From Dehalococcoidia bacterium (GTDB lineage Bacteria > Chloroflexota > Dehalococcoidia > Lucifugimonadales > JADFKI01): DNA of 64,000 bases. Within the stretch, counting starts at the first letter, position 1; each line of letters starts with the position of its first letter. The position numbers were made by a program, and so were the translations under genes. The notes below the pieces were generated by a model. That model saw only the letters and a program-made list of their open reading frames with translations. It was not told where the DNA came from and did no database searches. Below are positions 1,202-62,515 of this stretch, one piece after another. The stretch spans positions 2,888,313-2,952,312 of the forward strand of contig OZ241923.1 of the NCBI GenBank assembly GCA_965203955.1, in the 5' to 3' direction.

Positions 1202-1759
1202 CTAGTCCTTAGCCTCCATCAGCCACTTCTGGTCGCTGGCCGGACTGTTCAGCCATGTCTCCACGTACTTCTGCCGTTCTTCGGGCACTTCCACACCCAG
1301 GCCGTCAGCGAGCCGAGTCATGAAGTTGAACGTGCAGGTGATGAGGCAGACCGACAGAATCTGCTCATCGGTCAGTCCGTGCTCCCGGAGCTTGATAACA
1401 TCCGCTTCCTGCATGTTCGTAGGTTCGCGCGTGAGCTTGGTAGCGTAGTCGAGCATGGCGCGCGTCTGCGGATCGAGGTTGGCGTTACGATAGTCGTGCA
1501 TAATGTGACTTGCCAGCTCCGGGTCGTCGGAAGCGTGACGGAGAAACTCCCCGTGTGCCATCGTTCAGAAGCGGCACTCGTTCTGCACCGATACGGCGGT
1601 TGCAATTGCTTCCTCCTGTGTGCGTGTGAGAGCGGACGCTCCGAAGGTAATCGCGTTGTTAAAGTCGCTGACGGCCTGCATAGCCTTCGGGTTGATGGAC
1701 ATGATGTTGATGACGTTCGCCCAGTGCAGGCGCTCATCGGCTTCACGAATCCATGGCAT
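1202..1759 (-). CDS. AhpD / carboxymuconolactone-decarboxylase (CMD) family peroxidase-related protein, predicted selenoprotein (185 aa with U at the in-frame TGA)
   Basis: ORFs 1565-1873 and 1202-1561 share strand and frame and are separated only by TGA plus ACG. The joined sequence reads AIATAVSVQNEC-RF-[TGA]-TMAH-GEFL, matching the CMD core N-x-C-x-x-C-x-x-x-H. The likely start is the ATG at 1757-1759 (MPWIREADE), preceded by GGAGAG. A longer start would overlap the SDR gene. Confidence 0.72.
1538..1554 (-). promoter_or_regulatory. Weak hairpin downstream of the TGA (possible SECIS core, unproven)
   Basis: The mRNA reads ACGGGGAG-UUU-CUCCGU, giving 4-6 bp with a bulge. The loop lies about 18-20 nt 3' of the UGA. 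This was judged by eye only, with no energy calculation. Confidence 0.2.
1565..1567 (-). other. In-frame TGA, candidate selenocysteine codon
   Basis: It occupies the position of the second Cys of the CxxC motif of the AhpD/CMD domain. TGA is used as an ordinary stop elsewhere in the window (for example 1181-1183). Confidence 0.6.
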
Positions 1760-1793
1760 TTTATCTCTCTCCTGATTTGAGCTACAGAAAAAA

Positions 1794-2543
1794 TCAGTAT
1801 GTGGCTCTGCCGCCGCTGATGTCGAATACGCCGCCCGTGCTGAAGGAGCATTCTTCGGAGGCGAGCCAAGCAACGAGAGCGGCGATTTCGTCGATCTCGC
1901 CAGTTCGCCCGATGGGGATGCGCTCGACCATATAGTTCACCTGCTCGGGGGTGAGCTCGTCCAGGATGCGAGTGTGGACGACAGCGGGAGTCACACAGTT
2001 AACACGAATACCGGTCTTCGCCAGCTCCTTGCCGACGGACTTGGTGAGGCCGATGACGGCGGCTTTTGTGGCAGAGTAGGGCACCATCCGGGGGTTGCCC
2101 TCCTTGCCGGCGATGGAGGCGATGTTGACGATGCGCCCGTAGTCGCGGTCGATCATGTGTGGTATGACCGAGTGGCAGAACGCGAAGACACCGCGCAGGT
2201 TGATCCGGTAAACTCGGTCCATCTCATCTGGGGAAGTCTCCCAGATGTTGCCGTCAATACCGGTGATGCCGGCATTGTTCACGAGGATGTCAATGCGGCC
2301 CCAGGCGTCGAGTGCGGCCTGGACTGCGGCTTCGGCTGTGGTCTGCTCGGAGACGTCGCCGACCACGAGACGCGCATCGCTGCCGCGCGCGGATAGCTCG
2401 CTTGAGGACTGCTCGCCGAGATCGCCGTCGATGTCAACCATGACGAGGCGCGCCCCCTCAGAGGCCAGACGGCGTGCGATGCCATAGCCTATGCCGGTGG
2501 CGGCGCCCGTTACTATCGCTACCTGTTCTTCAAAACGGCTCAT
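1794..2543 (-). CDS. Short-chain dehydrogenase/reductase (SDR, FabG-like)
   Basis: It has the TGAATGIGYG cofactor motif, NNAG, and a catalytic S...YSATK signature. Confidence 0.9.
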   Translation of the reverse strand: MSRFEEQVAIVTGAATGIGYGIARRLASEGARLVMVDIDGDLGEQSSSELSARGSDARLVVGDVSEQTTAEAAVQAALDAWGRIDILVNNAGITGIDGNIWETSPDEMDRVYRINLRGVFAFCHSVIPHMIDRDYGRIVNIASIAGKEGNPRMVPYSATKAAVIGLTKSVGKELAKTGIRVNCVTPAVVHTRILDELTPEQVNYMVERIPIGRTGEIDEIAALVAWLASEECSFSTGGVFDISGGRATY

Positions 2544-5986: not shown

Positions 5987-7141
5987 TTAGTCAACTCCGA
6001 GCACAACCGTCCCCGTGGAGGACAGCGAGCCGCCGGTGCCGTTGATCAGGCAGAGCTTGGGATCGTCGAGCTGACGTTCGCCGGTCTCGCCGCGAAGCTG
6101 CCGAACCGCCTCTAGCACGAGGAACATGCCGTACATGCCGGAATGCGTGTAAGACAGACCACCACCGCTGGTATTCATCGGGAAGTCGCCGCCGGGCGCC
6201 GTGCGCTGGTTTGCAACGAAGTCGGGACCCTCGCCGGGCTCGCAGTATCCGAGGCTTTCGAGAGTCGCCAGCACCGTATAGGTAAAGGAGTCGTAAATCA
6301 TAGCGAGGTCTATGTCGTCGTGGGTTACGCCCGCCATCTGGAGGGCAGCGGGACCTGAGTAGCGCGCCCAAGTGCGGGTCAGGTTCTTCATCTGGCTGAT
6401 GACGCCGTGGTCGTGGCCTTCCGCTGCGCCGAGCACGTAAACAGGCGCTTTGGGCAGATCGCGCGCTCTTTCAGGCGTGGTTACTACATACGCGCCTCCG
6501 GCGTCCGTTACAAGACAGCAGTCGGGCAGGTGGAAGGGCCATGCAATCCAGCGTGAGTCATGATAGTCGTCGAACGACATGGGAGTGTCTTTGAAGTATG
6601 CCTTGGGGTTGAGGTTCGCCCACTTGCGTGTGGCTACTGCTACCTCAGCCATGCCCTGTCGCACCCTGCGCTCGCCGTACATGTGCATGTAGCGGCGGGC
6701 TGCCATCGCGTAGTTGATGGGTGCGCCGATGAAGCCGTAAGGGGACTCGTATTGCGGGCCTGCGTCTGATGCATTGCCGCCTGCCCGGGATCGAGCGCTG
6801 CGGCCTGCTTCTCCATGAGTAACGAGCACAGTGTCGCAGTAGCCAGCGTTGATCGCGGCAACGGCGTGCGCGATGTGGATTATGAACGACGAGCCGCCGA
6901 CGGCTGTCGTATCAGTGTATGTCGGGTTGATTCCCAGGTACTCGCCCAGGTTGATCGTCGAAGTACCCGCGGTCATGAGGCCGTTGACGTCCGACATGGA
7001 CAGCCCGGCATCTTCAAGCGCGTTGTACGCGGCTTCAGCGTGAAGCTGAAGGTTGGACTTTTCGACTCTTCCAATCTCGTCGGATTCTGCCACCCCAACA
7101 ATGGCAACCGACTTGCTCAAATCGGCCATCTTATATGGCAC
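5987..7141 (-). CDS. Thiolase-fold (SCP-x / lipid-transfer-protein type) protein, apparently lacking the catalytic Cys residues
   Basis: Thiolase-like blocks are present (AIVGVAES, NTSGGGLSYTHSGMYG, INGTGGSLSS). The C-x-S-G nucleophile position reads GGSS and the C-terminal CxG reads NGT. Confidence 0.8.
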   Translation of the reverse strand: MPYKMADLSKSVAIVGVAESDEIGRVEKSNLQLHAEAAYNALEDAGLSMSDVNGLMTAGTSTINLGEYLGINPTYTDTTAVGGSSFIIHIAHAVAAINAGYCDTVLVTHGEAGRSARSRAGGNASDAGPQYESPYGFIGAPINYAMAARRYMHMYGERRVRQGMAEVAVATRKWANLNPKAYFKDTPMSFDDYHDSRWIAWPFHLPDCCLVTDAGGAYVVTTPERARDLPKAPVYVLGAAEGHDHGVISQMKNLTRTWARYSGPAALQMAGVTHDDIDLAMIYDSFTYTVLATLESLGYCEPGEGPDFVANQRTAPGGDFPMNTSGGGLSYTHSGMYGMFLVLEAVRQLRGETGERQLDDPKLCLINGTGGSLSSTGTVVLGVD

Positions 7142-8390: not shown

Positions 8391-9209
8391 TTATGAAGCG
8401 GTTACTCCGTTTCGCAATCCAAGCGCAGTCATGACACCATCGGCGAGCGGCTGCAAGGCCGGCGAATCGAAGTCCGGCTCGAAGATTGAATTTAGGGCGG
8501 TAATGGCTATGCGGTTGTTTCGCACGGCAAAGATATCGGTGTCCTCGCCGACTGGCTTGTTCATCAGGCGGTTGTGCTTGATCCAATAATATGTCCTGCG
8601 TCCGTTGCTGCCGCGCTCGACATTCTCCAGATAGAGGCGGGGGCCCACGGTAGTGATGTTGGCACCCTTGATGCCGTCGAATGTGGCATTGGGGAGGTTG
8701 ACGTTCAGGAACAGAGGTGAAAGGCTGTCCAGCGCCGTGATGCCCTTGACCAGCGAAGCTGCGGTGCGGGCCGCGGCGTCGTACTGCACATTAGTCAGCG
8801 AAGCAACCGACATAGCGATTGAGTGTATGCCCCTGAAGTATCCTTGAAAGGCGGCACCGACCGTACCCGATGTCAGCAGATCCAGCCCGAGGTTTGATCC
8901 TTCGTTGATGCCGGAGAGCACTACATCGAACCCGCCCGGCTCCAAGGACTCAGCGGCAAGTATCACGCAGTCGGCTGGAGTTCCTTCAACAGCGTAAGTG
9001 CGAATACCTTCAATCGGAGATGGTGTAATTTCGCGCGACTTCACCACCTCGAGGAGGGTCATGGCGGTGCCGATGCCGCTCTGGTCGCGGTCGGGTGCGG
9101 CGACCACCACTTCGCCGAGTTCCCTGAGCGCCCCCGCCATCTTCCAGAGACCCGGAGCATTAACGCCGTCGTCGTTGGTTACCAGGATTTTCAATTTCTG
9201 TCTCTCCAC
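8391..9209 (-). CDS. surE: 5'/3'-nucleotidase SurE
   Basis: ILVTNDDGVNAPG motif and overall SurE-like sequence. Confidence 0.9.
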   Translation of the reverse strand: MERQKLKILVTNDDGVNAPGLWKMAGALRELGEVVVAAPDRDQSGIGTAMTLLEVVKSREITPSPIEGIRTYAVEGTPADCVILAAESLEPGGFDVVLSGINEGSNLGLDLLTSGTVGAAFQGYFRGIHSIAMSVASLTNVQYDAAARTAASLVKGITALDSLSPLFLNVNLPNATFDGIKGANITTVGPRLYLENVERGSNGRRTYYWIKHNRLMNKPVGEDTDIFAVRNNRIAITALNSIFEPDFDSPALQPLADGVMTALGLRNGVTAS

Positions 9210-31283: not shown

Positions 31284-31354
31284 TGCCCGGTGGTGTAGTG
31301 GTAGCACAAAGGACTTTGGATCCTTTGACCGAGGTTCGAATCCTCGCCGGGCAG
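31284..31354 (+). tRNA. tRNA-Gln (anticodon UUG)
   Basis: Hand-folded cloverleaf: acceptor TGCCCGG/CCGGGCA (U1-A72), anticodon loop CTTTGGA, T-loop TTCGAAT, discriminator G. No CCA is encoded. Confidence 0.9.
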
Positions 31355-31480
31355 CTCACTCACACCAGCCATCTTTGCAGACTGCCCCTTTGGTGGCACT
31401 ACCCTTGCTGGGCGGCAAGTCGGTACTTCAAAGCGTCTGACGTGGGCGAAAACTCGGAGGGGGTGGCGGGAATGGGATAG

Positions 31481-31557
31481 TGGCAGGAGCGGCAGGATTC
31501 GAACCCGCGACACTCGGTTTTGGAGACCGATGCTCTACCAAGCTGAGCTACGCTCCT
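31481..31557 (-). tRNA. tRNA-Trp (anticodon CCA), with CCA encoded
   Basis: Acceptor AGGAGCG/CGCTCCT, D-arm GCTCAGCTTGGTAGAGC, anticodon loop CTCCAAA, T-loop TTCGAAT, discriminator G followed by CCA. Confidence 0.92.
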
Positions 31558-31573
31558 GCGCCGAACGGATATA

Positions 31574-31602
31574 ATTTTAGCGGCTGAGCGACGGTGGGTC
31601 AA
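31574..31602 (-). promoter_or_regulatory. Sigma70-like promoter upstream of tRNA-Trp
   Basis: On the minus strand: TTGACC, then 17 nt, then TAAAAT. The predicted start is about 10 nt before the tRNA 5' end. Confidence 0.45.
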
Positions 31603-31654
31603 ACTGGAATCGGAAAGACTGAACGTCTCTTGAGCGCTGCCTCCGCACTTGCCG

Positions 31655-32022
31655 GACACCAAGGAGGCCTGTAAGCCGAGTTTTGTACCCGACGCGCCAG
31701 CATCGGGTGGCGACCATCTATCTAGCCGCGACGTTGCCGTCTCGGTCTTGCGGCCAACCCGGGGAAGGGCGGGCACCCGTTATCCCCCTATTAGGCCTTG
31801 CTCCGGATGGGGTTTGCCTTGCCCCCGATGTTACCATCGAAGCGGTGCGCTCTTACCGCACCTTTTCACCCTTACCTCGACTTCAGTCGGGGCGGTGTGT
31901 TTCTGTGGCACTGTCCGTCGGGTCGCCCCGCCCCGCAGTTAGCGGGCATCCTGCCCGGTGGAGCTCGGACTTTCCTCTCTTTCGTCTTTCAGACGCAACA
32001 GCGGTCGCCCAGCCTCCTTGGT
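31655..32022 (-). ncRNA. rnpB: RNase P RNA, bacterial type A
   Basis: The minus strand contains GAGGAAAGTCCGAGCTCCAC (CR-I) and ACAAAACTCGGCTTACAG (CR-V). The 5' CCAAGGAGGC pairs with the 3' GCCTCCTTGG (P1). Ends are approximate. Confidence 0.9.
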
Positions 32023-32029
32023 AGCACTC

Positions 32030-32038
32030 ATTGTAACA
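32030..32038 (-). promoter_or_regulatory. Extended -10 promoter element for rnpB
   Basis: On the minus strand, TGtTACAAT lies 7-8 nt upstream of the predicted P1 5' end. Confidence 0.4.
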
Positions 32039-32203
32039 TCGCCGAGGTATTGGGGCGGCGATTGACCGCAGCCAATCCTGCGAATTGATCCTTTTTGTGG
32101 AATCCCTTGGCCTCAAGAGGTCGCCGGGAAAGGGGGAAAGACTCCGCTCCGAAATGACTCCGGCCAATGGCATCCTATCTTGATAGGAAAGTAGGAAGGT
32201 AAC

Positions 32204-33604
32204 CTAGGTTACCACTTCGACCGAATCGTCGCTTACGATGATCTTTGTCACATGAAGCTGCAAGAACGCCTGCTGGTCCTCAAACCCCAGCGAATCCCAG
32301 TTTTCGATCGTGTCTTCAACATCCCAGTGTCGGTCCCAGGACGCCGCACCCGTTCTGGCATGGTCCAACTGTTTCAGGTGGTCTTGAACCGCTCCCAAAC
32401 CGAACTCGCCCCTTGCCGCCCGCTTTAGATTCAGCAAGAATCGACGTTCGGCATTCTTTATTCGTTTGTCCCACATTGCCTGCAATCGGTCGCGACTCCG
32501 CCCTGCGACGGCCACGCTGCCCTCGGTTGAGTCTTTCCCGGACAGGGTATCCCTGATCTGCGAGAGCACCGCGGACTCAAGGACGCCGGCCCGCCACGTA
32601 TGATAGCCGCACAGACTCTGGTTGTTCCGGCTCTGGCACTGATAATAGCGGTAAATGCCTCGTGCGCTGTTGCCGTCCTTCCGCTTCCATGACTGCCTGC
32701 GAGTTACACCCATCATCTTGTTGGAGCAGTAGCCGCACTCGGCCAGCCCCGACAATAAGAAGGGCTCCGTGCTGACTGACCTTGACGAAGGTCGTCTTGC
32801 CTTCGTCTGATCTTGCGCCATTCGGTATGTCTTTGGGCTTATGATCGCTTCATGTGCTTTTGGAAGCCGAAGGCCAAATCGGTAGTACGTCCCGGTGTAA
32901 GTAGGGTTTCGGAGGATGTCCCGGATGGTCACCATGTTCCAGCGTCCACCGCGCCTCGTCTTGATGTCCCGCTCATTCAGGTATTGCGCAATCAGCCGAA
33001 GTCCTAGCCCTTCGTTTACGTACCTGTCGTAAATGAGCCTGACGATCGAAGCTTCATCTTCGATTACTTCGAGATTGCCGTCACTGCTATTGCGGTAGCC
33101 AAATGGAGGCTTGCCTAGCCCCTTGCCTAGCATTGCTCTCCGGCGCATCGAATCTTTGATGCGCTCGCTTCGCTCTTTGGAGACCCCCGCAGGTCCCATT
33201 GAATCAAGTGCATTCTGAAGGGGATCAGGGATTTCATCGTCTTCGCAGATCACTTTACAACCCGTTGCCTCGATCTCGATGATCGTGCGAATAACTTCTT
33301 CCAGGTCTTTACCGAGATGCGTTGTGTCCGGCACGACAACCAGGTAATTGCTGTGCGAGTTCACGATGTGCTCAAGCATGCGACCATATTCCGGCAGCCT
33401 GTGCCCCGAACCGCCGTTGCCGTTGCTCTTGCCATTGCCGTTGTTTCCCCAGTGGGATAGCTCCCCAGCGGAGGGCACATCGCCGAAGATGGCTACCGGC
33501 TGATGCAGGTAGCGCTCGCAGTACCGCTCAAAACGCTCTTGGTGTTCCCCGACGGCTTCTTCACTATCTTCATTTTTCAGTCTGTAATATCCTATTGCGC
33601 GCAT
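32204..33604 (-). CDS. Large serine recombinase homologue (resolvase N-domain + recombinase domain + zinc ribbon + coiled coil), with catalytic residues apparently substituted
   Basis: The recombinase domain (GKPPFGYR...RWNMVTIRDILRNPTYTG) and Cys-rich ribbon (CGYC...YYQC...C) are clear. The N-terminus reads IGYYRLKNEDS where YARVSTDEQ is expected, and PDTTHLGKD where DRLSR is expected. The start ATG at 33604 lies 8 nt after the upstream stop. Confidence 0.8.
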   Translation of the reverse strand: MRAIGYYRLKNEDSEEAVGEHQERFERYCERYLHQPVAIFGDVPSAGELSHWGNNGNGKSNGNGGSGHRLPEYGRMLEHIVNSHSNYLVVVPDTTHLGKDLEEVIRTIIEIEATGCKVICEDDEIPDPLQNALDSMGPAGVSKERSERIKDSMRRRAMLGKGLGKPPFGYRNSSDGNLEVIEDEASIVRLIYDRYVNEGLGLRLIAQYLNERDIKTRRGGRWNMVTIRDILRNPTYTGTYYRFGLRLPKAHEAIISPKTYRMAQDQTKARRPSSRSVSTEPFLLSGLAECGYCSNKMMGVTRRQSWKRKDGNSARGIYRYYQCQSRNNQSLCGYHTWRAGVLESAVLSQIRDTLSGKDSTEGSVAVAGRSRDRLQAMWDKRIKNAERRFLLNLKRAARGEFGLGAVQDHLKQLDHARTGAASWDRHWDVEDTIENWDSLGFEDQQAFLQLHVTKIIVSDDSVEVVT

Positions 33605-33611
33605 GGTAATC

Positions 33612-34394
33612 TCATTCCACGTAAAGTATGCGCCGACAATTGTTACATTGGACAAGCGGGTCGCCGCCTCTGAGTCGTTGCGAATCCGAAGTGGGCAGCG
33701 CCACGCGGCAGATTCCGCAGATCTCCCTGCCTCTTGCAAGTTCCACTTTGCTCACGGCTTGCCCGCCGCGACTCGCCAGTAATGTTTCGTAAGTCGAGAG
33801 CATCTGTGGCGGGAACAGAGGCAGCATTTCAGCTCGCCTTAGTTCGAGAGCGTCAAGCTCGGCAACTAATGTCTGCTCCTGTATTCTAAGTTGTGGCACT
33901 CGCTCTCTTCGCTGTTCCTCAAGTGCTTGAAAAGCAGACCTTGCCGCCGCCAATTCTTCCTCTAGCTCCTCCGTCTCTACCATTCGCTCTAGAAGTACGT
34001 CCTCCGCCTCTGAAATTTGGCGACCTAGTTTTGCCTGTTCTTCCTGGAATGCCTCCAGTTCGCGAGGATTAGTGACAGCGCCGCTGTAGAGCCGTTCCTG
34101 CACAGACTCTGCTCTGGCTTCAAGTTGTTCTACTATGAGCTGGGCGTCGCGGCGTAACGCGCTTCGGTTTGTGTGGTGGGCGTCAACCTGTGCGAGTCGC
34201 TGCTGGGCGCGGCGCAGGCTGGATTCGTCGGCAAGTTCGGCCCGCACCGTACTTAGCGCCTGCTGCTTCTCGACTCTCACGAGATCAAGTTCCTGAAGAT
34301 TGTAGAGTTCTTTGAGCGACAATCTGACCAGCCAAAAGGATATTCCGTTAGTTTGTACTAATATATGCAGGTGTTCCATTGAGCGTATAGGCAA
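33612..34394 (-). CDS. Coiled-coil protein with a C-terminal zinc ribbon (COG1579/DUF164-like)
   Basis: A long heptad-rich region followed by CGICRVALP...CNNCRRILY. The exact start is uncertain. Confidence 0.7.
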   Translation of the reverse strand: MPIRSMEHLHILVQTNGISFWLVRLSLKELYNLQELDLVRVEKQQALSTVRAELADESSLRRAQQRLAQVDAHHTNRSALRRDAQLIVEQLEARAESVQERLYSGAVTNPRELEAFQEEQAKLGRQISEAEDVLLERMVETEELEEELAAARSAFQALEEQRRERVPQLRIQEQTLVAELDALELRRAEMLPLFPPQMLSTYETLLASRGGQAVSKVELARGREICGICRVALPTSDSQRLRGGDPLVQCNNCRRILYVE

Positions 34395-36116: not shown

Positions 36117-38294
36117 GTGCTCAGGTTATACAACACTCTGTCCAAGCGAATCGAAGAGGTGCGCCCGATAGAGCCCGGTATAGTCAAGATGTACACCTGC
36201 GGGCCTACGGTTTATCGGGATGCGCACATCGGAAATCTGCGCTCATACCTGATGGCCGACTGGATAAGAAGGGCGCTTGAACTCGACGACCTGAAAGTTC
36301 TCCACATCAAGAACATCACCGATGTTGGGCACATGCGTCAGGAAGTCTTGGAACAGGGTGGGGACAAGGTAATTGCCGCTGCCATAGCCGAAGGCAAAAC
36401 GCCCGCGCAGATAGCACAGTTTTACACTGATAGGTTCCTCAGCGACGAGCTAAAGCTGAATATCACGCCGGCGCAAGAATTTCCTAAAGCAACCGACCAT
36501 GTGCCGGAAATGCTGGAGATAACGGAGCGCCTTGTCGAGCGTGGGCTTGCATACGAGGTAGGCGGCAACGTTTACTTCGAAGTTGGCAAATTCAACAGGT
36601 ACGGTCAGCTGTCGGGAAATATCGCTGAGGGAGACCTGCTTGAAGCTGTGCGCGTTGAAGCCGATCCACTAAAGCGCGATCCGAGAGATTTTACGCTATG
36701 GAAAGCCGCGGAGCAGGGTAGAGAGCTGAAGTGGCCCAGTGTTTGGGGCGAAGGATTTCCGGGATGGCACATCGAGTGCTCGGCAATGTCGATCAAGTAT
36801 CTGGGGACCCAATTCGATATTCATACCGGCGGTGTGGACAACATTTTCCCGCATCATGAAGGTGAAATAGCTCAGAGCGAGGGCTATGCGGGAGAGCAGG
36901 TGGTTAACATCTGGACACACGGGCAACACCTGCTTGCCGACGGTGTGAAGATGGCGAAGTCCATGGGCAATTCATTCATCCTGTCAGACATTGAGGCTCA
37001 AGGTATCGACCCGCTTGCGTTCCGCTATCTTTGCCTGACAGCCCAGTATGATTCGCGCCTGAACTTCACGTTTACTTCCCTTAAGGCCGCGCAGCGAGCG
37101 TTGCTGAGGCTGCGCAATATGGTCTGGCATTGGAATCGCCAGGCAAACGGGAGTTCAGCGGACAGCGAATCAATTACCCGATGGCAGCGTCGCTTCAAGG
37201 ACCTCGTTGATGACAACCTGAATTTGCCGGGCGCCGTTGCTCTTACTTGGGAATTGGCTCACTCGGACGCACCGCCTTCGGTCAAGCTGAACCTGCTGTC
37301 TTACTTTGACAGGGTTCTGGGACTGAACATTGCGAGCGTAATCGACGATTACTCGGTGCCTAATGAGGTCGCAGAAGAGGTCTCGCATCGCACCAGACAC
37401 CGTGGAAGAAAGGACTACGCACGCGCAGATTCGATTCGCTCCGATCTAATGGACTCGGGGTTCGTCATCCAAGACGGCGGTGCCGCTACCTTCGTGCGCC
37501 CCAAGACGGACTGGGAGATGCGACAAGAACGCTGGCATACCTACTCTTCTGAGGCTGAAGTGGAGTCTCTCGTTGGCGCTCCCGACGGGGTTGACGTTTC
37601 CGTGGGGATCGTGGCGTGCAATTATCTCGGCGACGTGAAGCGTTGCGTCAAAAGCGCATTCGAGTGGCTTGGTGACCGCAGCGCAGAGGTTGTGGTGGTT
37701 GACAACGGCTCAACTGACGGCACGGATGAGTGGCTCGAAGAGGCCGCTGCCGAAGATGACAGACTTCGCGTGATTCATATCGACCATCCTCTAGGGGAAG
37801 GATCAGCCAAGAGAATTCTACTGAAGCAATGCGTTGGTAGGACCGTCGTGATGGTGGATACTAGTGTGGAGATTGCGGGAGATATATTCGGTCCAATTGA
37901 GCTCGCACTTGAAGATGAAACCGTCGGGGTGGCCGGACCATTCGGTCTCCGTACAACGGACCTGCATCACTTCCACGATGGTGAGGGTGAGAGTGGGGAT
38001 ATGGATGCGATGCAAGCCTACTGTTTTGCCTTCCGGCGGTCACGATTGAGGGAGGTAGGTTTGCCCAGGCGGGCGTTCCGCTTCTATAGGAACCTTGATC
38101 TCGACTTTAGTTTCCAATTCAAGGCGCGAGGGTATAGAATAGTTGCAGATCCCGACCTGCCACTCGGACAGCATGAGCATCGGGTATGGTCGGAACTCGG
38201 AGAGGCTGAACGCGACGAATTGAGCCGCAAGAACTACGGGCGGTTCCTCGACAAGTGGGGCGATCGGCCAGATCTATTGACCTGTAACCAGTAG
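36117..38294 (+). CDS. cysS: Cysteine--tRNA ligase fused to a C-terminal GT2-family glycosyltransferase domain
   Basis: Residues 1-~470 are a complete class I CysRS: CGPTVY, HIGN, WHIEC, HHEGE, KMAKS, and a C-terminal KDYARADSIRSDL helix. Residues ~492-725 (nt 37590-38294) read VSVGIVACN...VVVDNGSTDGT...MVDTSV...NLDLDFSFQFKARGYRI, which is GT2-like. Confidence 0.88.
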   Translation: MLRLYNTLSKRIEEVRPIEPGIVKMYTCGPTVYRDAHIGNLRSYLMADWIRRALELDDLKVLHIKNITDVGHMRQEVLEQGGDKVIAAAIAEGKTPAQIAQFYTDRFLSDELKLNITPAQEFPKATDHVPEMLEITERLVERGLAYEVGGNVYFEVGKFNRYGQLSGNIAEGDLLEAVRVEADPLKRDPRDFTLWKAAEQGRELKWPSVWGEGFPGWHIECSAMSIKYLGTQFDIHTGGVDNIFPHHEGEIAQSEGYAGEQVVNIWTHGQHLLADGVKMAKSMGNSFILSDIEAQGIDPLAFRYLCLTAQYDSRLNFTFTSLKAAQRALLRLRNMVWHWNRQANGSSADSESITRWQRRFKDLVDDNLNLPGAVALTWELAHSDAPPSVKLNLLSYFDRVLGLNIASVIDDYSVPNEVAEEVSHRTRHRGRKDYARADSIRSDLMDSGFVIQDGGAATFVRPKTDWEMRQERWHTYSSEAEVESLVGAPDGVDVSVGIVACNYLGDVKRCVKSAFEWLGDRSAEVVVVDNGSTDGTDEWLEEAAAEDDRLRVIHIDHPLGEGSAKRILLKQCVGRTVVMVDTSVEIAGDIFGPIELALEDETVGVAGPFGLRTTDLHHFHDGEGESGDMDAMQAYCFAFRRSRLREVGLPRRAFRFYRNLDLDFSFQFKARGYRIVADPDLPLGQHEHRVWSELGEAERDELSRKNYGRFLDKWGDRPDLLTCNQ

Positions 38295-57862: not shown

Positions 57863-58876
57863 CTATGCCAGTCTCTGGCTCAGTTCCACAAATGACTCCA
57901 TTCGTTCCTTGGCGCTTCCGCTGTCAATGGCACTTGCCACGGCGTCCACGCCTTCACGCAGAGTTCCTGCCAAGTCGGCAGCGAGCAGCGCGGCCGCGGC
58001 GTTCAGCAGCACGATGTCTCGCGCCGCGCCAGCGTTGCCGTCCAGCACATCGCGGAGTATCCCCGCGCTTTCATCGGCATGGGACGCCTGTATGTCGTGA
58101 AGGGACGAAGCGTTCAGTCCGAAGTCGGCAGGCGACACGTTGTACTCGCCGACATCGCCGTCATTGAGTTCCCAGACGCGGGTCGAGTCGGCAATAGTGA
58201 TCTCGTCGAGGCCATCGCTGCCATGCACGACCAGGGCGCGTCTGCTGCCAAGCCTGCCGAGCACCTGCGCCATCTTCGACGCCATAGAAGCGTCCGCAAC
58301 GCCGATGACCTGTGCGTCGGCGCCCGCAGGATTCGTTAGTGGTCCGAGAATGTTGAACACAGTGCGTATGCCGATCTCCCGCCTAGGGCCTGCTGCAAAA
58401 CGCATTGACGGGTGAAAGCCCTGCGCGAACATGAATCCGAAACCAGTCTCGTGGATGCAGCGTGCGACTGACTCCGGGCTGAGGTCTATCTTTGCGCCCA
58501 GCGCCTCCAGCACATCCGCGCTTCCGGAGGAGCCGGACATCGCGCGGTTGCCGTGCTTGGCGACCTTCGCGCCTGCCCCCGCCGCCACAAACGCGGCAGT
58601 CGTGGATATGTTGAATGTACCTGAGCCATCGCCGCCAGTGCCGCAGGTGTCAACGAGTGTGCCGTCCACTTCCACATGCAGCGAATGCTCGCGCATAACC
58701 TGCGCCATCCCCGCAATCTCGTCCACCGTCTCGCCCTTCAGACGCAGAGCCGTTACGAACGCCCCGAACTGCGCGGGTGTCGCCTCGCCGCTCATAATCT
58801 CATTCATGGCCTGAGCGGCGTGCTCCATCGAAAGGGATTCGCCGCTCACGACCGTCTCGATTGCTTCCCGTATCAT
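57863..58876 (-). CDS. trpD: Anthranilate phosphoribosyltransferase
   Basis: DTCGTGGDG, KHGNRA and NPAG blocks. Confidence 0.93.
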   Translation of the reverse strand: MIREAIETVVSGESLSMEHAAQAMNEIMSGEATPAQFGAFVTALRLKGETVDEIAGMAQVMREHSLHVEVDGTLVDTCGTGGDGSGTFNISTTAAFVAAGAGAKVAKHGNRAMSGSSGSADVLEALGAKIDLSPESVARCIHETGFGFMFAQGFHPSMRFAAGPRREIGIRTVFNILGPLTNPAGADAQVIGVADASMASKMAQVLGRLGSRRALVVHGSDGLDEITIADSTRVWELNDGDVGEYNVSPADFGLNASSLHDIQASHADESAGILRDVLDGNAGAARDIVLLNAAAALLAADLAGTLREGVDAVASAIDSGSAKERMESFVELSQRLA

Positions 58877-58902
58877 TGCTGTAATCCTTATTCTTCCGAG
58901 GC

Positions 58903-59466
58903 TTACATATTCAGGAAATTACGGAGCAGGTCATGTCCCACCTTCGTCATTATCGACTCCGGATGAAACTGTATCCCCTCCACAGGATGGCTCTTGTGCC
59001 GCACACCCATGACGATTCCGTTGTCTGTCCAGGCCGTGACTTCCAGGTCCTCTGGCATGTCTTCCTTGTACACGGCAAGAGAATGGTAGCGAATCGCCTC
59101 GAACGGGTTCGGCAGTCCCTTGAACACCCCCTCGCCGTCGTGGTGGATCAGCGACATCTTGCCGTGCATTATCTCTCCTGCGCCGCCAACCGTGCCCCCG
59201 TAGGCGTCTCCGATGCACTGGTGCCCAAGGCACACGCCCAGCGTCGGGGTGCCCTCCCCAAACTGCATAATCACGTCGTTGGAAATGCCCGCTTCTTTCG
59301 GCGTGCATGGTCCCGGCGAAATGACTATTTTCTCCGGAGACATCGCCTCAATCTCCTCGATGGATGTCTTGTCGTTGCGCCTTACCTCTACCTCCGCGCC
59401 AAGTTCGCAGAGATACTGGTATAAGTTGTATGTGAAGCTGTCGTAATTGTCTATCAGCAGTATCAA
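58903..59466 (-). CDS. trpG: Anthranilate synthase component II (glutamine amidotransferase)
   Basis: MILLIDNYDSFTYN, GVCLGHQ and QFHPES motifs. Confidence 0.93.
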   Translation of the reverse strand: MILLIDNYDSFTYNLYQYLCELGAEVEVRRNDKTSIEEIEAMSPEKIVISPGPCTPKEAGISNDVIMQFGEGTPTLGVCLGHQCIGDAYGGTVGGAGEIMHGKMSLIHHDGEGVFKGLPNPFEAIRYHSLAVYKEDMPEDLEVTAWTDNGIVMGVRHKSHPVEGIQFHPESIMTKVGHDLLRNFLNM

Positions 59467-59512
59467 TTTTCGTTCCTCTGCCGTTCAGTCCAGGCGTGTC
59501 TTTTCTTAGTGT

Positions 59513-60967
59513 CTATTGGTGCGCGATCCCGACTTCTTCGGCGTCATCTATGGCACGCATTAGTGCGGATGCCTTGTGCAGAGTCTCTCTGTACTCGAAG
59601 TCCGGAGTGCTGTCGTAAACTATGCCTCCGCCGGCCTGTGCGTGCGCGATGCCGTCCTTGATAACCAGCGTGCGTATGTCGATTGCCGTATCCATATTGC
59701 CCGTGAAGTCGAAATAGCCGACCGCACCTGCGTAAGGCCCTCGCTTGTCTGGCTCCAGTTCCGCGATGATTTCCATTGCGCGAATCTTCGGCGCGCCCGA
59801 CACTGTGCCGGCAGGGAAGCAGGCGCGCAGGGCATCGAAGTTGGTGTAGCCCTCCCGCAGCTTCCCGCTCACTCGCGATACAAGGTGCATCACATGCGAG
59901 TACCGCTCCACATCCATAAGCTGGTTCACTGAAACCGTTCCCGGTTCGCTGACGCGCCCAATGTCATTGCGGCCTAGGTCCACCAGCATGATGTGTTCCG
60001 CGCGTTCCTTCTCGTCGCCGCGCAGCTCTTCTTCATTTAAGTCGTCTTCTCTCTGGCTCGCCCCCCGAGGACGAGTGCCGGCTATCGGATTCGTCGATAC
60101 CACGCCATCCTCTACGCGCACCAGCATCTCGGGCGACGCTCCCACGATCTGGAAGCCGTCGAGTTCGAGGTAGTACATATAAGGCGACGGGTTGATGGCG
60201 CGCAGTGAGCGATATATCTGGAATGGGTCCGCCGTAGTAGGGCGCGACAGCCGCTGTGACACGACGGTCTGGATTACATCCCCTGCGACGATGTATTCCT
60301 TCACCTGGTTCACCATGTCGTAATACTCTTCAGGTGTCATGTTCGAAGTCGTCGCCAGCCGCTGGTCCGCCGCGCTGTTCGTCGAAATCGGAACCGACAA
60401 TGGAGATTGCAACCGCCTTATGACTTCGTCGATTCGGCCCGTCGCCTCGCTGTACGCCCCTTCGACATCGCCGTCAAGGTGTGCGTGGCTCACTACCGTT
60501 ATCTTATGCCCCACATGGTCGAAAACCATGTACGTCATCGTGAGCATAAACACCGCTTCCGGCACGCCAAGCACGTCCGGGTCTGGTGAGGGCAATTCCT
60601 CGAAGTAGTTTACTGACTCATAAGACAGGTAGCCCACCGCGCCTCCGTTGAAGCGCTGCATATTCGGCACCTCGATCAGTTTGAAGCGTCTCAGTTCTTT
60701 CTCTATTGGCTCCAGTGGGTCAATTTTGCCAAGCGCCTGATCCACGCCAGTCTTGATGACAACCTGCGGTTCCGTGCCAATGAAACTATATCGTGCCATT
60801 CGCTCGCCGCCTTCTACGCTCTCAAACAGGAAAGAGTAGGGCGGGCGAGCTACTTTCAGGTAGGCGCTGACCGGCGTATCCAGGTCGGCGTTGATTTCAC
60901 GGCAGATGGGGATCAGATTGCCCTTATGGGCAAGCTCCTTCACCTGCTTCAGGTCCGGGTAGTACAT
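59513..60967 (-). CDS. trpE: Anthranilate synthase component I
   Basis: Chorismate-binding blocks (LFESVEGG, GAVGYF, GGGIVYDS). The ATG at 60967 follows GGAGG. The ORF track start at 61012 would run through the hairpin. Confidence 0.92.
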   Translation of the reverse strand: MYYPDLKQVKELAHKGNLIPICREINADLDTPVSAYLKVARPPYSFLFESVEGGERMARYSFIGTEPQVVIKTGVDQALGKIDPLEPIEKELRRFKLIEVPNMQRFNGGAVGYLSYESVNYFEELPSPDPDVLGVPEAVFMLTMTYMVFDHVGHKITVVSHAHLDGDVEGAYSEATGRIDEVIRRLQSPLSVPISTNSAADQRLATTSNMTPEEYYDMVNQVKEYIVAGDVIQTVVSQRLSRPTTADPFQIYRSLRAINPSPYMYYLELDGFQIVGASPEMLVRVEDGVVSTNPIAGTRPRGASQREDDLNEEELRGDEKERAEHIMLVDLGRNDIGRVSEPGTVSVNQLMDVERYSHVMHLVSRVSGKLREGYTNFDALRACFPAGTVSGAPKIRAMEIIAELEPDKRGPYAGAVGYFDFTGNMDTAIDIRTLVIKDGIAHAQAGGGIVYDSTPDFEYRETLHKASALMRAIDDAEEVGIAHQ

Positions 60968-60990
60968 TGTCTGTATGCCTCCAGAATGAA

Positions 60991-61019
60991 GGCTGCTGTG
61001 GAACAACTCCACAGCAGCC
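60991..61019 (-). terminator. Strong intercistronic hairpin between trpS and trpE (partial terminator or stability element)
   Basis: A perfect 12 bp stem (GGCUGCUGUGGA-guugu-UCCACAGCAGCC) followed by UUCAUUCU. It lies 8 nt upstream of the trpE RBS. Confidence 0.45.
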
Positions 61020-61036
61020 CGGAAAAGTCGGAGTTA

Positions 61037-62098
61037 TTAGTATTGCGGCAGCGTAAAGCCTACTCGCCGCTTGATTTCATCCATCTTGGGGGTTGCCACG
61101 GCTGCTGCGCTTTCGGCGCCCCTTGCGAGCATGCGGTCCAGTTCAGCAGGGTCATCCATGAACTCGTAGTATCGCTGCTGGATCGGTGAAAGCGCGTCTA
61201 TGACAACCTCTGCCACTCGCGATTTCAGGTCACCATAGCCGCGCGCGTCCGCGAAGTCCGAAATCACCTCATCTTGCGACTTGTCGGTGATGACCTTGTA
61301 AATGCCCAGCAGGTTGTTCACGCCCGCCTTCTCCGCTTCCTCGGAAAAAACGATGTCACTGCCGGAGTCGGTTACGGCTCGCTTGATGGTGCGCTCTATC
61401 TCCTTTGGTTCATCCAGCATTCGCACCGCATGTCCGCGGATATGCGCGTAGCTCTTCGACATCTTGACCGTCGGATCGTTCATCCCCATCACGCGCGCGC
61501 CAATCGCCGGAATCATCGGCTCCGGCACAACAAAGGTATCTCCGTAGATGCGATTGAAGCGAATGGCGATGTCCCGTGCCAGCTCTACATGTTGCCGCTG
61601 ATCGTCCCCGACGGGCACTTCATGAGAGTCGTAGAGCAGGATGTCTCCCGCCATCAGCACCGGATAGTCGAACAGCCCCGCGGATACGCTTTCCTGCCGG
61701 GAGGACTTGTCCTTAAACTGCGTCATGCGCTCCAGCCAGCCCATCGGCGTCACGCAATTGAGCACCCAACAGGACTCTGCGTGCGCGGCGACGTGACTCT
61801 GCACGAATACCGTGCTCTTGTCCGGGTGCAGCCCTGCTGCGAAAAGCACTGCTGCCAGCGAGCGCGTCTGATTTCGCAGCTCCTCGGGGTCCTGATAGAC
61901 CGTTATGGCATGCAGGTCAACAAGGCAGAAAAAGTTAACCTTCTCCTCCTGCCCCTCGACCCATCCCTTAATGGCGCCGAGATAGTTGCCCAGCTGCACC
62001 TCGCCCGAAGGCTGGATGCCGCTGAAAACGCGCCGCTTCTCCGCGGTGCGCCGTTCGGCTGTCTTTCTGTGAATTTGCGTAGTCATCGCCTCGATCAC
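61037..62098 (-). CDS. trpS: Tryptophan--tRNA ligase
   Basis: GIQPSGEVQLGNYLG and KMSKS motifs. The start is the GTG at 62098 or the ATG at 62086. Confidence 0.95.
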   Translation of the reverse strand: MIEAMTTQIHRKTAERRTAEKRRVFSGIQPSGEVQLGNYLGAIKGWVEGQEEKVNFFCLVDLHAITVYQDPEELRNQTRSLAAVLFAAGLHPDKSTVFVQSHVAAHAESCWVLNCVTPMGWLERMTQFKDKSSRQESVSAGLFDYPVLMAGDILLYDSHEVPVGDDQRQHVELARDIAIRFNRIYGDTFVVPEPMIPAIGARVMGMNDPTVKMSKSYAHIRGHAVRMLDEPKEIERTIKRAVTDSGSDIVFSEEAEKAGVNNLLGIYKVITDKSQDEVISDFADARGYGDLKSRVAEVVIDALSPIQQRYYEFMDDPAELDRMLARGAESAAAVATPKMDEIKRRVGFTLPQY

Positions 62099-62201
62099 CT
62101 CATGGAATTCAACGAGTCCATATCTTCGCTAATGACTTCGCCAGAATACCGCGCCGATGTTGGTCATCGTGCACTCGCCTCCTACTCTGTCAGATGGCAA
62201 C

Positions 62202-62490
62202 AAAAAAACCCGCCCCCAAAGGGACGGGTTGTAACCGTGGTGCCACCCTAGTTCGCCACCTACGCCCACATTGCAGGCTCAGGTGACCTCTATTCAAGTA
62301 CGGAAAGCTACTCTGAACTTTCGATACCCTGGGCTGTGATAACGGTGCCCTCTCCGGTCACGCCTACTCGACTTGTATGTCTTTCGGATGACGGCTCCCG
62401 GGTCCATTCCATCTTCTGCGCGAGTGCCGGCTCTCACCTGGTCCGGTTCTCTGGAACTCCGCTGGAAGACTTACTACTCCCGTTCAATGC
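62202..62490 (-). promoter_or_regulatory. T-box riboswitch leader, Trp specifier (UGG)
   Basis: Minus strand: Stem I carries AGUA...AGAGA...GGUGAGAG, and the specifier loop reads GAAGA-UGG-A (UGG at 62409-62411). The T-box sequence AACUAGGGUGGCACCACGG lies at 62231-62253. The terminator AACCCGUCCC-UUU-GGGGGCGGGUU is followed by U7 (62202-62230). Confidence 0.85.
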
Positions 62491-62515
62491 CTCTTGACTT
62501 TCGATGTCTTCAGAG

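Follow-up and report, generated by a model that had tools for sequence, protein, structure and literature searches.

In a 64-kb stretch of a Dehalococcoidia bacterium genome (contig OZ241923.1 of assembly GCA_965203955.1, positions 2,888,313 to 2,952,312), two open reading frames (ORFs) follow one another on the minus strand and make up a single gene, very probably that of an AhpD-like selenoprotein in which an in-frame UGA is read as selenocysteine (Sec) under the direction of a selenocysteine insertion sequence (SECIS) at 1554-1538. The whole stretch is called the window below, and coordinates are positions within it. According to the ORF listing, the upstream ORF (1565..1873) and the downstream one (1202..1561) have a common frame. 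Only a TGA (1567-1565) and an ACG codon (1564-1562) stand between them on the minus strand, followed by the ATG at 1561-1559. Conceptual translation through the junction gives ...SVQNECRF*TMAHGEFLRH..., the asterisk marking the UGA.

The true start of the joined gene is ATG 1759 and not TTG 1873. This is because an AGGAGAG sequence lies 7 nt upstream of it, the N-terminus M-[PSA]-W-I-R-E is kept in relatives, and these relatives have in-frame stops just 5' of that Met. The resulting protein and its key codons are listed in Table 1.

Table 1. Features of the AhpD-like gene, in window coordinates.
Feature	Position	Strand	Remarks
Ribosome-binding site AGGAGAG	1767..1773	(-)	7 nt 5' of ATG 1759; read from the sequence
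AhpD-like (TIGR01926/COG2128) coding sequence, predicted selenoprotein	1202..1759	(-)	185 codons including Sec65; ATG 1759-1757, TAG 1204-1202
Glu50 codon, Glu of the E-X11-C-X2-U-X3-H spacing	1610..1612	(-)	EE[AMC]IA motif conserved in all loci
Cys62 codon TGC, first residue of CxxU	1574..1576	(-)	TGC or TGT in 47/47
In-frame UGA, codon 65, second position of the C62-R-F-U65 redox motif	1565..1567	(-)	TGA in 47/47 aligned sequences
His69 codon CAC, His of C-X2-U-X3-H	1553..1555	(-)	CAC in 47/47; last two bases open the SECIS stem
Predicted SECIS, 17-nt hairpin ACGGGGA-GUU-UCUCCGU	1538..1554	(-)	7-bp stem, GUU apical loop; starts 10 nt after the UGA

The two ORFs form one gene of the AhpD superfamily

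When the stop is replaced by Cys, the joined protein obtains 129 bits against TIGR01926 ('peroxidase-related enzyme'), well above the cut-off of 81.8. The match is one stretch that runs over the junction, from residue 12 to 158, and covers model positions 27-175 of 178. Against the carboxymuconolactone decarboxylase (CMD) model of Pfam, the joined protein reaches 43.1 bits; its halves, at 21.8 and 14.2 bits, fall short of the cut-off of 23. Homologues with solved structures (PDB 3c1l, 2pfx and 2prr) match the joined protein at E-values of 6e-26 to 8e-24. The UGA aligns exactly with the second Cys of their CxxC motifs, which read nhCyyC, nkCfyC and nqClyC, respectively. Inspection of the sequences of more distant full-length homologues (P0179, P0185, P0200, P0204 and P0244) reveals C-x-Y-C at the corresponding position. 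An earlier note on this DNA, made from the sequence alone, had described a same-strand, same-frame ORF pair separated by TGA and ACG, had read it as one AhpD/CMD gene with the UGA at the second Cys of CxxC, and had stated that neither half is a complete domain: its coordinates are correct, and each of these statements stands.

The active-site motif is E50-X11-C62-X2-U65-X3-H69, with E50, C62, U65 and H69 conserved in the related loci. This spacing equals that of the proton relay of Mycobacterium tuberculosis AhpD, made of Glu118, Cys130, Cys133 and His137 in the order Glu-X11-Cys-X2-Cys-X3-His (PMC3141380); the same two-helix motif is common to AhpD and Pseudomonas aeruginosa PA0269. At the position of His132/Tyr50 we find Phe or Tyr, and unlike both proteins, the window protein would have Sec for the second Cys. 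It also departs from M. tuberculosis AhpD in its topology of about 185 residues, that of the TIGR01926 group (PDB 3c1l, 2pfx, 2prr and 6k40), and in its surroundings: no ahpC lies near it, nor is there any AhpC/Prx gene among the 30 window ORFs that were scanned. Judging from these alignments, its fold is probably like that of the solved AhpD-type structures.

Two neighbouring families were considered and rejected. Members of the gamma-CMD family are devoid of the CxxC/His relay (PMC3141380), in contrast to the CxxU/His relay of the window protein; it is therefore no gamma-carboxymuconolactone decarboxylase (PcaC), and the Pfam CMD match reflects the shared superfamily only. The second is NF041238 (AhpD_rel_CFYUT, 'alkylhydroperoxidase-related (seleno)protein'), which corresponds to hypothetical protein 1 of the Sargasso Sea study. 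It contains a related domain with a near-identical motif, C-[FRH]-[YF]-U-T followed by xxH[AG]EFLR. However, NF041238 is a two-domain protein of about 357 residues, of which the window protein covers model positions 177-342 only, and the score of 60.4 bits is far from the cut-off of 175.

The UGA codon is conserved across phyla

A genome scan returned 50 related loci, from metagenome-assembled genomes (MAGs) of Dehalococcoidia, SAR202 and other Chloroflexota, from Methylomirabilota, from Binatia and from a 'Deltaproteobacteria' MAG. Forty-six of them are intact and, together with the window gene, make up an alignment of 47 sequences (A1). At protein identities of 48-95%, all 46 have TGA at this codon, within C-[RH]-[FY]-TGA-[TA], and the junction is free of indels in every aligned orthologue. 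On either side of the TGA, the ratio of nonsynonymous to synonymous substitution rates (dN/dS) relative to the window gene lies in the range 0.01-0.33; dS is close to saturation or past it.

These data leave next to no probability for a pseudogene or an assembly error, that is, for a nonsense mutation or a miscalled TGC/TGT in an ordinary CxxC AhpD-like gene. Such an accident could draw on the decayed copies found in a few relatives (L046 and L050 are frameshifted, L047 is truncated) and on two short metagenome contigs that have TGG or CGA at the codon. Against it, the TGA occurs in 47 of 47 independent assemblies from at least three phyla, strong purifying selection acts on the two halves in one frame, and the hairpin downstream is conserved and covaries. 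In addition, no close orthologue has Cys at the position of codon 65: a Cys form is absent from the 120 nearest database clusters.

The four loci outside the intact set (L046, L047, L049 and L050) are decayed or truncated copies. Three of them come from Dehalococcoidia MAGs: L046:4175-4674 has a frameshift and has lost the first active-site Cys, L047:5001-5336 is without its N-terminal part, and L050:5001-5251 carries an internal deletion or frameshift. The decay of these three could be real gene loss or the result of assembly errors.

The only full-length close homologues in the database, L051:581-1132 and L052:173-727, have TGG (Trp) and CGA (Arg), respectively, at the Sec codon. A single base separates each of these codons from TGA, and both loci have kept an intact SECIS hairpin. 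As both are singleton contigs of about 1 kb, they may represent sequencing errors or rare inactive alleles. That their proteins could be products of TGA translated under another code was rejected, the DNA having real TGG and CGA codons.

We also searched a library of 50%-identity clusters with the C-terminal half of the protein. The nearest full-length clusters, P0122-P0138 (44-54% identity), show Gly or Ala where Sec would stand, in the context C-R-Y-G-A-L-T-H, and two of them are without the first Cys as well. On this residue pattern they look like a sister clade devoid of redox function. Several bear long C-terminal extensions ending in a conserved module, ...ARDLYIxYxRWCDE...GRHWWxGI.... 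In the 208-residue database ORF P0114, the C-terminal part of one AhpD-like gene is joined to the N-terminal part of another, which comes second and ends in ...KCRF; this suggests that a single contig carries the selenoprotein gene twice in tandem.

Public gene calls split the gene systematically, as the earlier note had expected of ORF callers: almost always the C-terminal piece of 118-119 residues appears alone, under the name 'hypothetical protein', and among the 150 nearest 50%-identity clusters, about 40 are fragments whose sequence starts one to three residues beyond the Sec. Nearly all database entries could thus be taken to describe two genes, or a split protein whose translation ends at the UGA and begins anew at ATG 1561, two codons further on in the window, so that peptides of 64 and 119 residues assemble. 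The position of this ATG is nevertheless occupied by another codon in 9 of the 47 orthologues (CTG, TTG, ACC, AAT, TCT or TCG), and therefore the halves are not separate genes, in agreement with the earlier note. Moreover, no Shine-Dalgarno sequence precedes ATG 1561, the chain is continuous in the Cys-containing homologues, and a cut through the CxxC/H active-site helix would remove the second redox residue. A split protein is thus extremely improbable. Joining the halves restores a complete redox enzyme: the main value of the present reading lies in this correction of the annotation.

A covarying hairpin follows the UGA

The hairpin at 1554-1538 lies inside the coding sequence, where it encodes (H)-G-E-F-L-R of the active-site helix. 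Over the 47 sequences, 97.5% of the stem cells form standard pairs; sliding the 3' partners lowers this to 37-67%. None of 500 shuffles attains the pairing or covariation score of the real alignment, and RNAalifold independently predicts the same stem. Compensatory changes are found at two pairs: G-C becomes C-G in 6 sequences of the Methylomirabilota/Binatia group, and A-U becomes G-C or C-G in 13-14 sequences. The amino-acid changes involved, Gly to Ala and Glu to Gly or Ala, are matched by a third-position change in the facing stem codon, which is synonymous for Leu (CTC to CTG) and for Phe (TTT to TTC).

Synonymous sites in the hairpin are constrained against the window's own codon usage. 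The codon of Gly+5, counted from the UGA, is only ever GGG or GGA, whereas 65% of the window's Gly codons are GGC or GGT. Glu+6 is encoded by GAG in 33 of 33 cases; its G, at 1547 in the window, is the invariant G of the loop (GAA is at 41% in the window). Similarly, Arg+9 is CGT in 41 of 47 sequences, a codon that accounts for 11% of Arg codons in the window, and His+4 is CAC in 47 of 47, with CAT at 40% of His codons.

The bSECISearch consensus, as quoted in PMC13188914, describes a bacterial SECIS by four criteria: an apical loop of 3-9 nt on an upper stem of 4-16 bp; a G at either of the loop's first two positions, usually followed by G or U; a distance of 16-37 nt from the UGA to the apical loop; and a minimum free energy that does not exceed -7.5 kcal/mol. 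The hairpin agrees with all four. Its stem has 6-7 bp and its loop 3 nt, or 5 nt in sequences with a broken closing pair. The loop reads GUU 44 times, GGC twice and GUC once, with an invariant G. From the UGA (alignment columns 13-15) to the loop (from column 33) there are 17 nt in all 47 sequences. The free energy of the 17-nt hairpin is -7.5 kcal/mol in the window, with a median of -7.8, and is at or below -7.5 in 43 of 47 sequences; for the UGA with 45 nt following it, it is -11.9 kcal/mol in the window and satisfies the threshold in 47 of 47. In 46 of the 47 sequences, the minimum-free-energy fold includes the hairpin.

In the SECIS of Escherichia coli fdhF type, a minimal upper stem-loop of 17 nt lies 11 nt after the UGA, and a GU in its apical loop contacts SelB. 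The window hairpin resembles it in its length of 17 nt, its distance of 10 nt from the UGA, the GU at the beginning of its loop and its place inside the coding sequence; it differs in having no evident bulged U and in its sequence. A possible lower stem of 3 bp is not claimed here, as its register shifts between orthologues. Altogether, the covariation and the constraint on synonymous sites point indirectly to a hairpin that would bind SelB and bring about Sec insertion.

Genetic code and selenium machinery

TGA is an ordinary stop codon in the window: it ends the convergent gene of a major facilitator superfamily (MFS) transporter at 1181-1183 and, in all, 9 of 29 long coding-like ORFs. The earlier note had pointed to the former case in arguing against a reassigned code; the wider count bears it out, and there is therefore no code reassignment. 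A scan of the 64 kb for other in-frame TGAs left this gene as the only real candidate. One other case was rejected, being the stop/start junction of two adjacent genes.

Evidence for the Sec machinery comes from the relatives. An orthologue with 91% identity and the same TGA (L006) lies on contig MPND01000002.1 of SAR202 bin90, from the sponge Aplysina aerophoba. The table of Clusters of Orthologous Groups (COG) for this bin gives COG1921 (SelA) = 3, COG3276 (SelB) = 1 and COG0709 (SelD) = 1 (PMC5649159, Table S4). On a Binataceae contig (L045), a selD gene (TIGR00476, 389 bits), which itself has an in-frame TGA in ...AAG*AGK..., lies directly upstream of the orthologue. It is preceded by the gene of an ArsS-type radical SAM (seleno)protein (TIGR04167) in its Cys form. 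With the AhpD-like CHY-TGA-T gene, these two (L045:1521-4334) look like a small selenium-related cluster. A probe with approximate E. coli SelD and SelA sequences matched L045 only.

In two Chloroflexota MAGs, the orthologue adjoins another candidate selenoprotein gene, of the UxxC kind. One is a DUF3179 gene with W-U-P-L-C (L017:5559-6842, TGA at 6120), whose joined product scores 267 bits with Pfam; the other, an AhpC/TSA-Redoxin gene, has FFATW-U-PVC (L040:8388-9218, TGA at 8898). Each of them has a hairpin with G in the loop 17-20 nt after the UGA. DUF3179 is mentioned in two selenoprotein reviews, where Prx-like and Trx-like UxxC families are also listed. In the BSepDB database, Dehalococcoidia MAGs with 46 and 49 selenoproteins are among the richest bacteria.

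The UGA might instead be read as a standard amino acid, by a code reassigned to Trp or Gly, by near-cognate read-through, or by a tRNA-Sec-like tRNA that carries Cys. The last mechanism is one from the recoding literature. One relative does have TGG (Trp) at the site, the sister clade has Gly or Ala there, and the case for Sec insertion is a comparative one. However, a general reassignment is at odds with the TGAs that end 9 of 29 long genes, the site is the position of a catalytic Cys, and the hairpin fits a SECIS model of the SelB type. Furthermore, a MAG that contains an orthologue is reported to encode SelA and SelD, which serve to make Sec and not Cys, and a Sec-type selD adjoins the orthologue in L045. 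We consider decoding as a standard amino acid very unlikely.

Several results weigh against a Sec-decoding UGA. ARAGORN finds no tRNA-Sec in the 64-kb window, nor in the 50 related loci with about 450 kb of flanking sequence from the relatives; selA, selB and selD are absent from the 30 scanned window ORFs, among them those of SelA, SelB or SelD size. No Rfam family matches the hairpin region at gathering or permissive thresholds, apart from one chance match on the opposite strand. The compensatory changes amount to about three independent events in related clades, a modest number, and the hairpin overlaps a conserved protein motif. Finally, when a single sequence is folded (71 nt around the UGA), it does no better than its shuffles (z = -0.07): it is the comparative data only that set the hairpin apart from chance. 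The earlier note had seen a weak hairpin at 1538-1554 and had not considered a SECIS established. The hairpin exists, and such caution was justified for a lone sequence that folds no better than shuffles; its identification as a SECIS is now supported by the fit to the model and by the compensatory changes. On balance, we retain the UGA as a Sec codon, and the source genome would be expected to encode selA, selB, selC and selD.

Proposed mechanism and relation to known selenoproteins

During translation, the 17-nt hairpin 10 nt downstream of the UGA would recruit SelB carrying Sec-tRNA(Sec), and Sec would be inserted at codon 65 instead of chain termination. The product would be an AhpD-like thiol/selenol oxidoreductase of 185 residues with the active site E50-X11-C62-R-F-U65-X3-H69. 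Sec65, in place of the second Cys of the AhpD CxxC, could cycle with Cys62 between the selenol/thiol and the selenenylsulfide states. The enzyme would probably serve in the re-reduction of a peroxiredoxin-type partner, or else act as a direct reductant of hydroperoxides.

The AhpD-like proteins with CxxU (COG2128, YciW) entered the literature as a selenoprotein family in 2005, when 27 sequences, for which a SECIS was predicted, were described from the Sargasso Sea metagenome. In the Global Ocean Sampling (GOS) study, 'AhpD-like 1' ranks fourth among the families in abundance, its Sec forms numbering 299 and its Cys forms 902. A 2026 review lists 'AhpD-like protein, TIGR01926, CxxU', and the family is also present in a 2022 review and in BSepDB.

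The window gene shares with this family the TIGR01926 model, matched above cut-off, and the CxxU motif with Sec at the second Cys. Its SECIS has the same architecture, just downstream of the UGA and with a G in a small apical loop, and the habitat is likewise marine or sponge-associated. We see no difference of substance. The present instance comes from a SAR202-type Dehalococcoidia genome, and its close clade appears to be Sec-only, as far as the 120 nearest database clusters go. Since it scores above the TIGR01926 cut-off and the CxxU family has been known since 2005, it is an ordinary member of a known family, in a reportedly selenoprotein-rich lineage. It raises no new question on selenocysteine decoding or on the chemistry of AhpD. 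The joined gene marks its source organism as a probable user of selenium, which fits the reports of sponge-associated and marine SAR202/Dehalococcoidia as rich in selenoproteins.

It is conceivable, if doubtful, that the enzyme is strictly Sec-dependent in the SAR202/Dehalococcoidia clade. The idea comes from the lack of a Cys orthologue in those 120 clusters and from the departures from UGA, which lead to non-redox residues only. If it were true, Cys would be unable to replace Sec in the reaction of this subfamily, the substrate or the chemistry would be unlike those of classical AhpC recycling, and the SECIS stem would shape the H-G-E-F-L-R segment of the active-site helix.

Genomic context and other features of the window

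The neighbours of the AhpD-like gene encode a class-III aminotransferase, a short-chain dehydrogenase/reductase (SDR) and the convergent MFS transporter. The order aminotransferase, SDR, AhpD-like gene and convergent transporter is kept only in the closest relatives, and this neighbourhood offers no clue to function.

Three other regions of the window deserve mention. On the plus strand, a 725-codon ORF (36117-38294) combines the complete catalytic region of a cysteine-tRNA ligase (residues 1-460) with a domain of glycosyltransferase family 2 (residues 495-621); either this is an uncommon fusion, or two genes share a frame and are not separated by a stop. On the minus strand, a large serine recombinase gene (32204-33739) lies next to the RNase P RNA (31656-32020), tRNA-Trp (31481-31557) and tRNA-Gln (31284-31355), and the region 31284-33739 may be the edge of an integrated mobile element. 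At 57863-62496, again on the minus strand, a T-box leader (62217-62496) stands upstream of trpS (61037-62098), followed by trpE (59513-61012) and trpD (57863-58876): it looks like a Trp-responsive T-box that controls both the synthetase and the biosynthetic genes.

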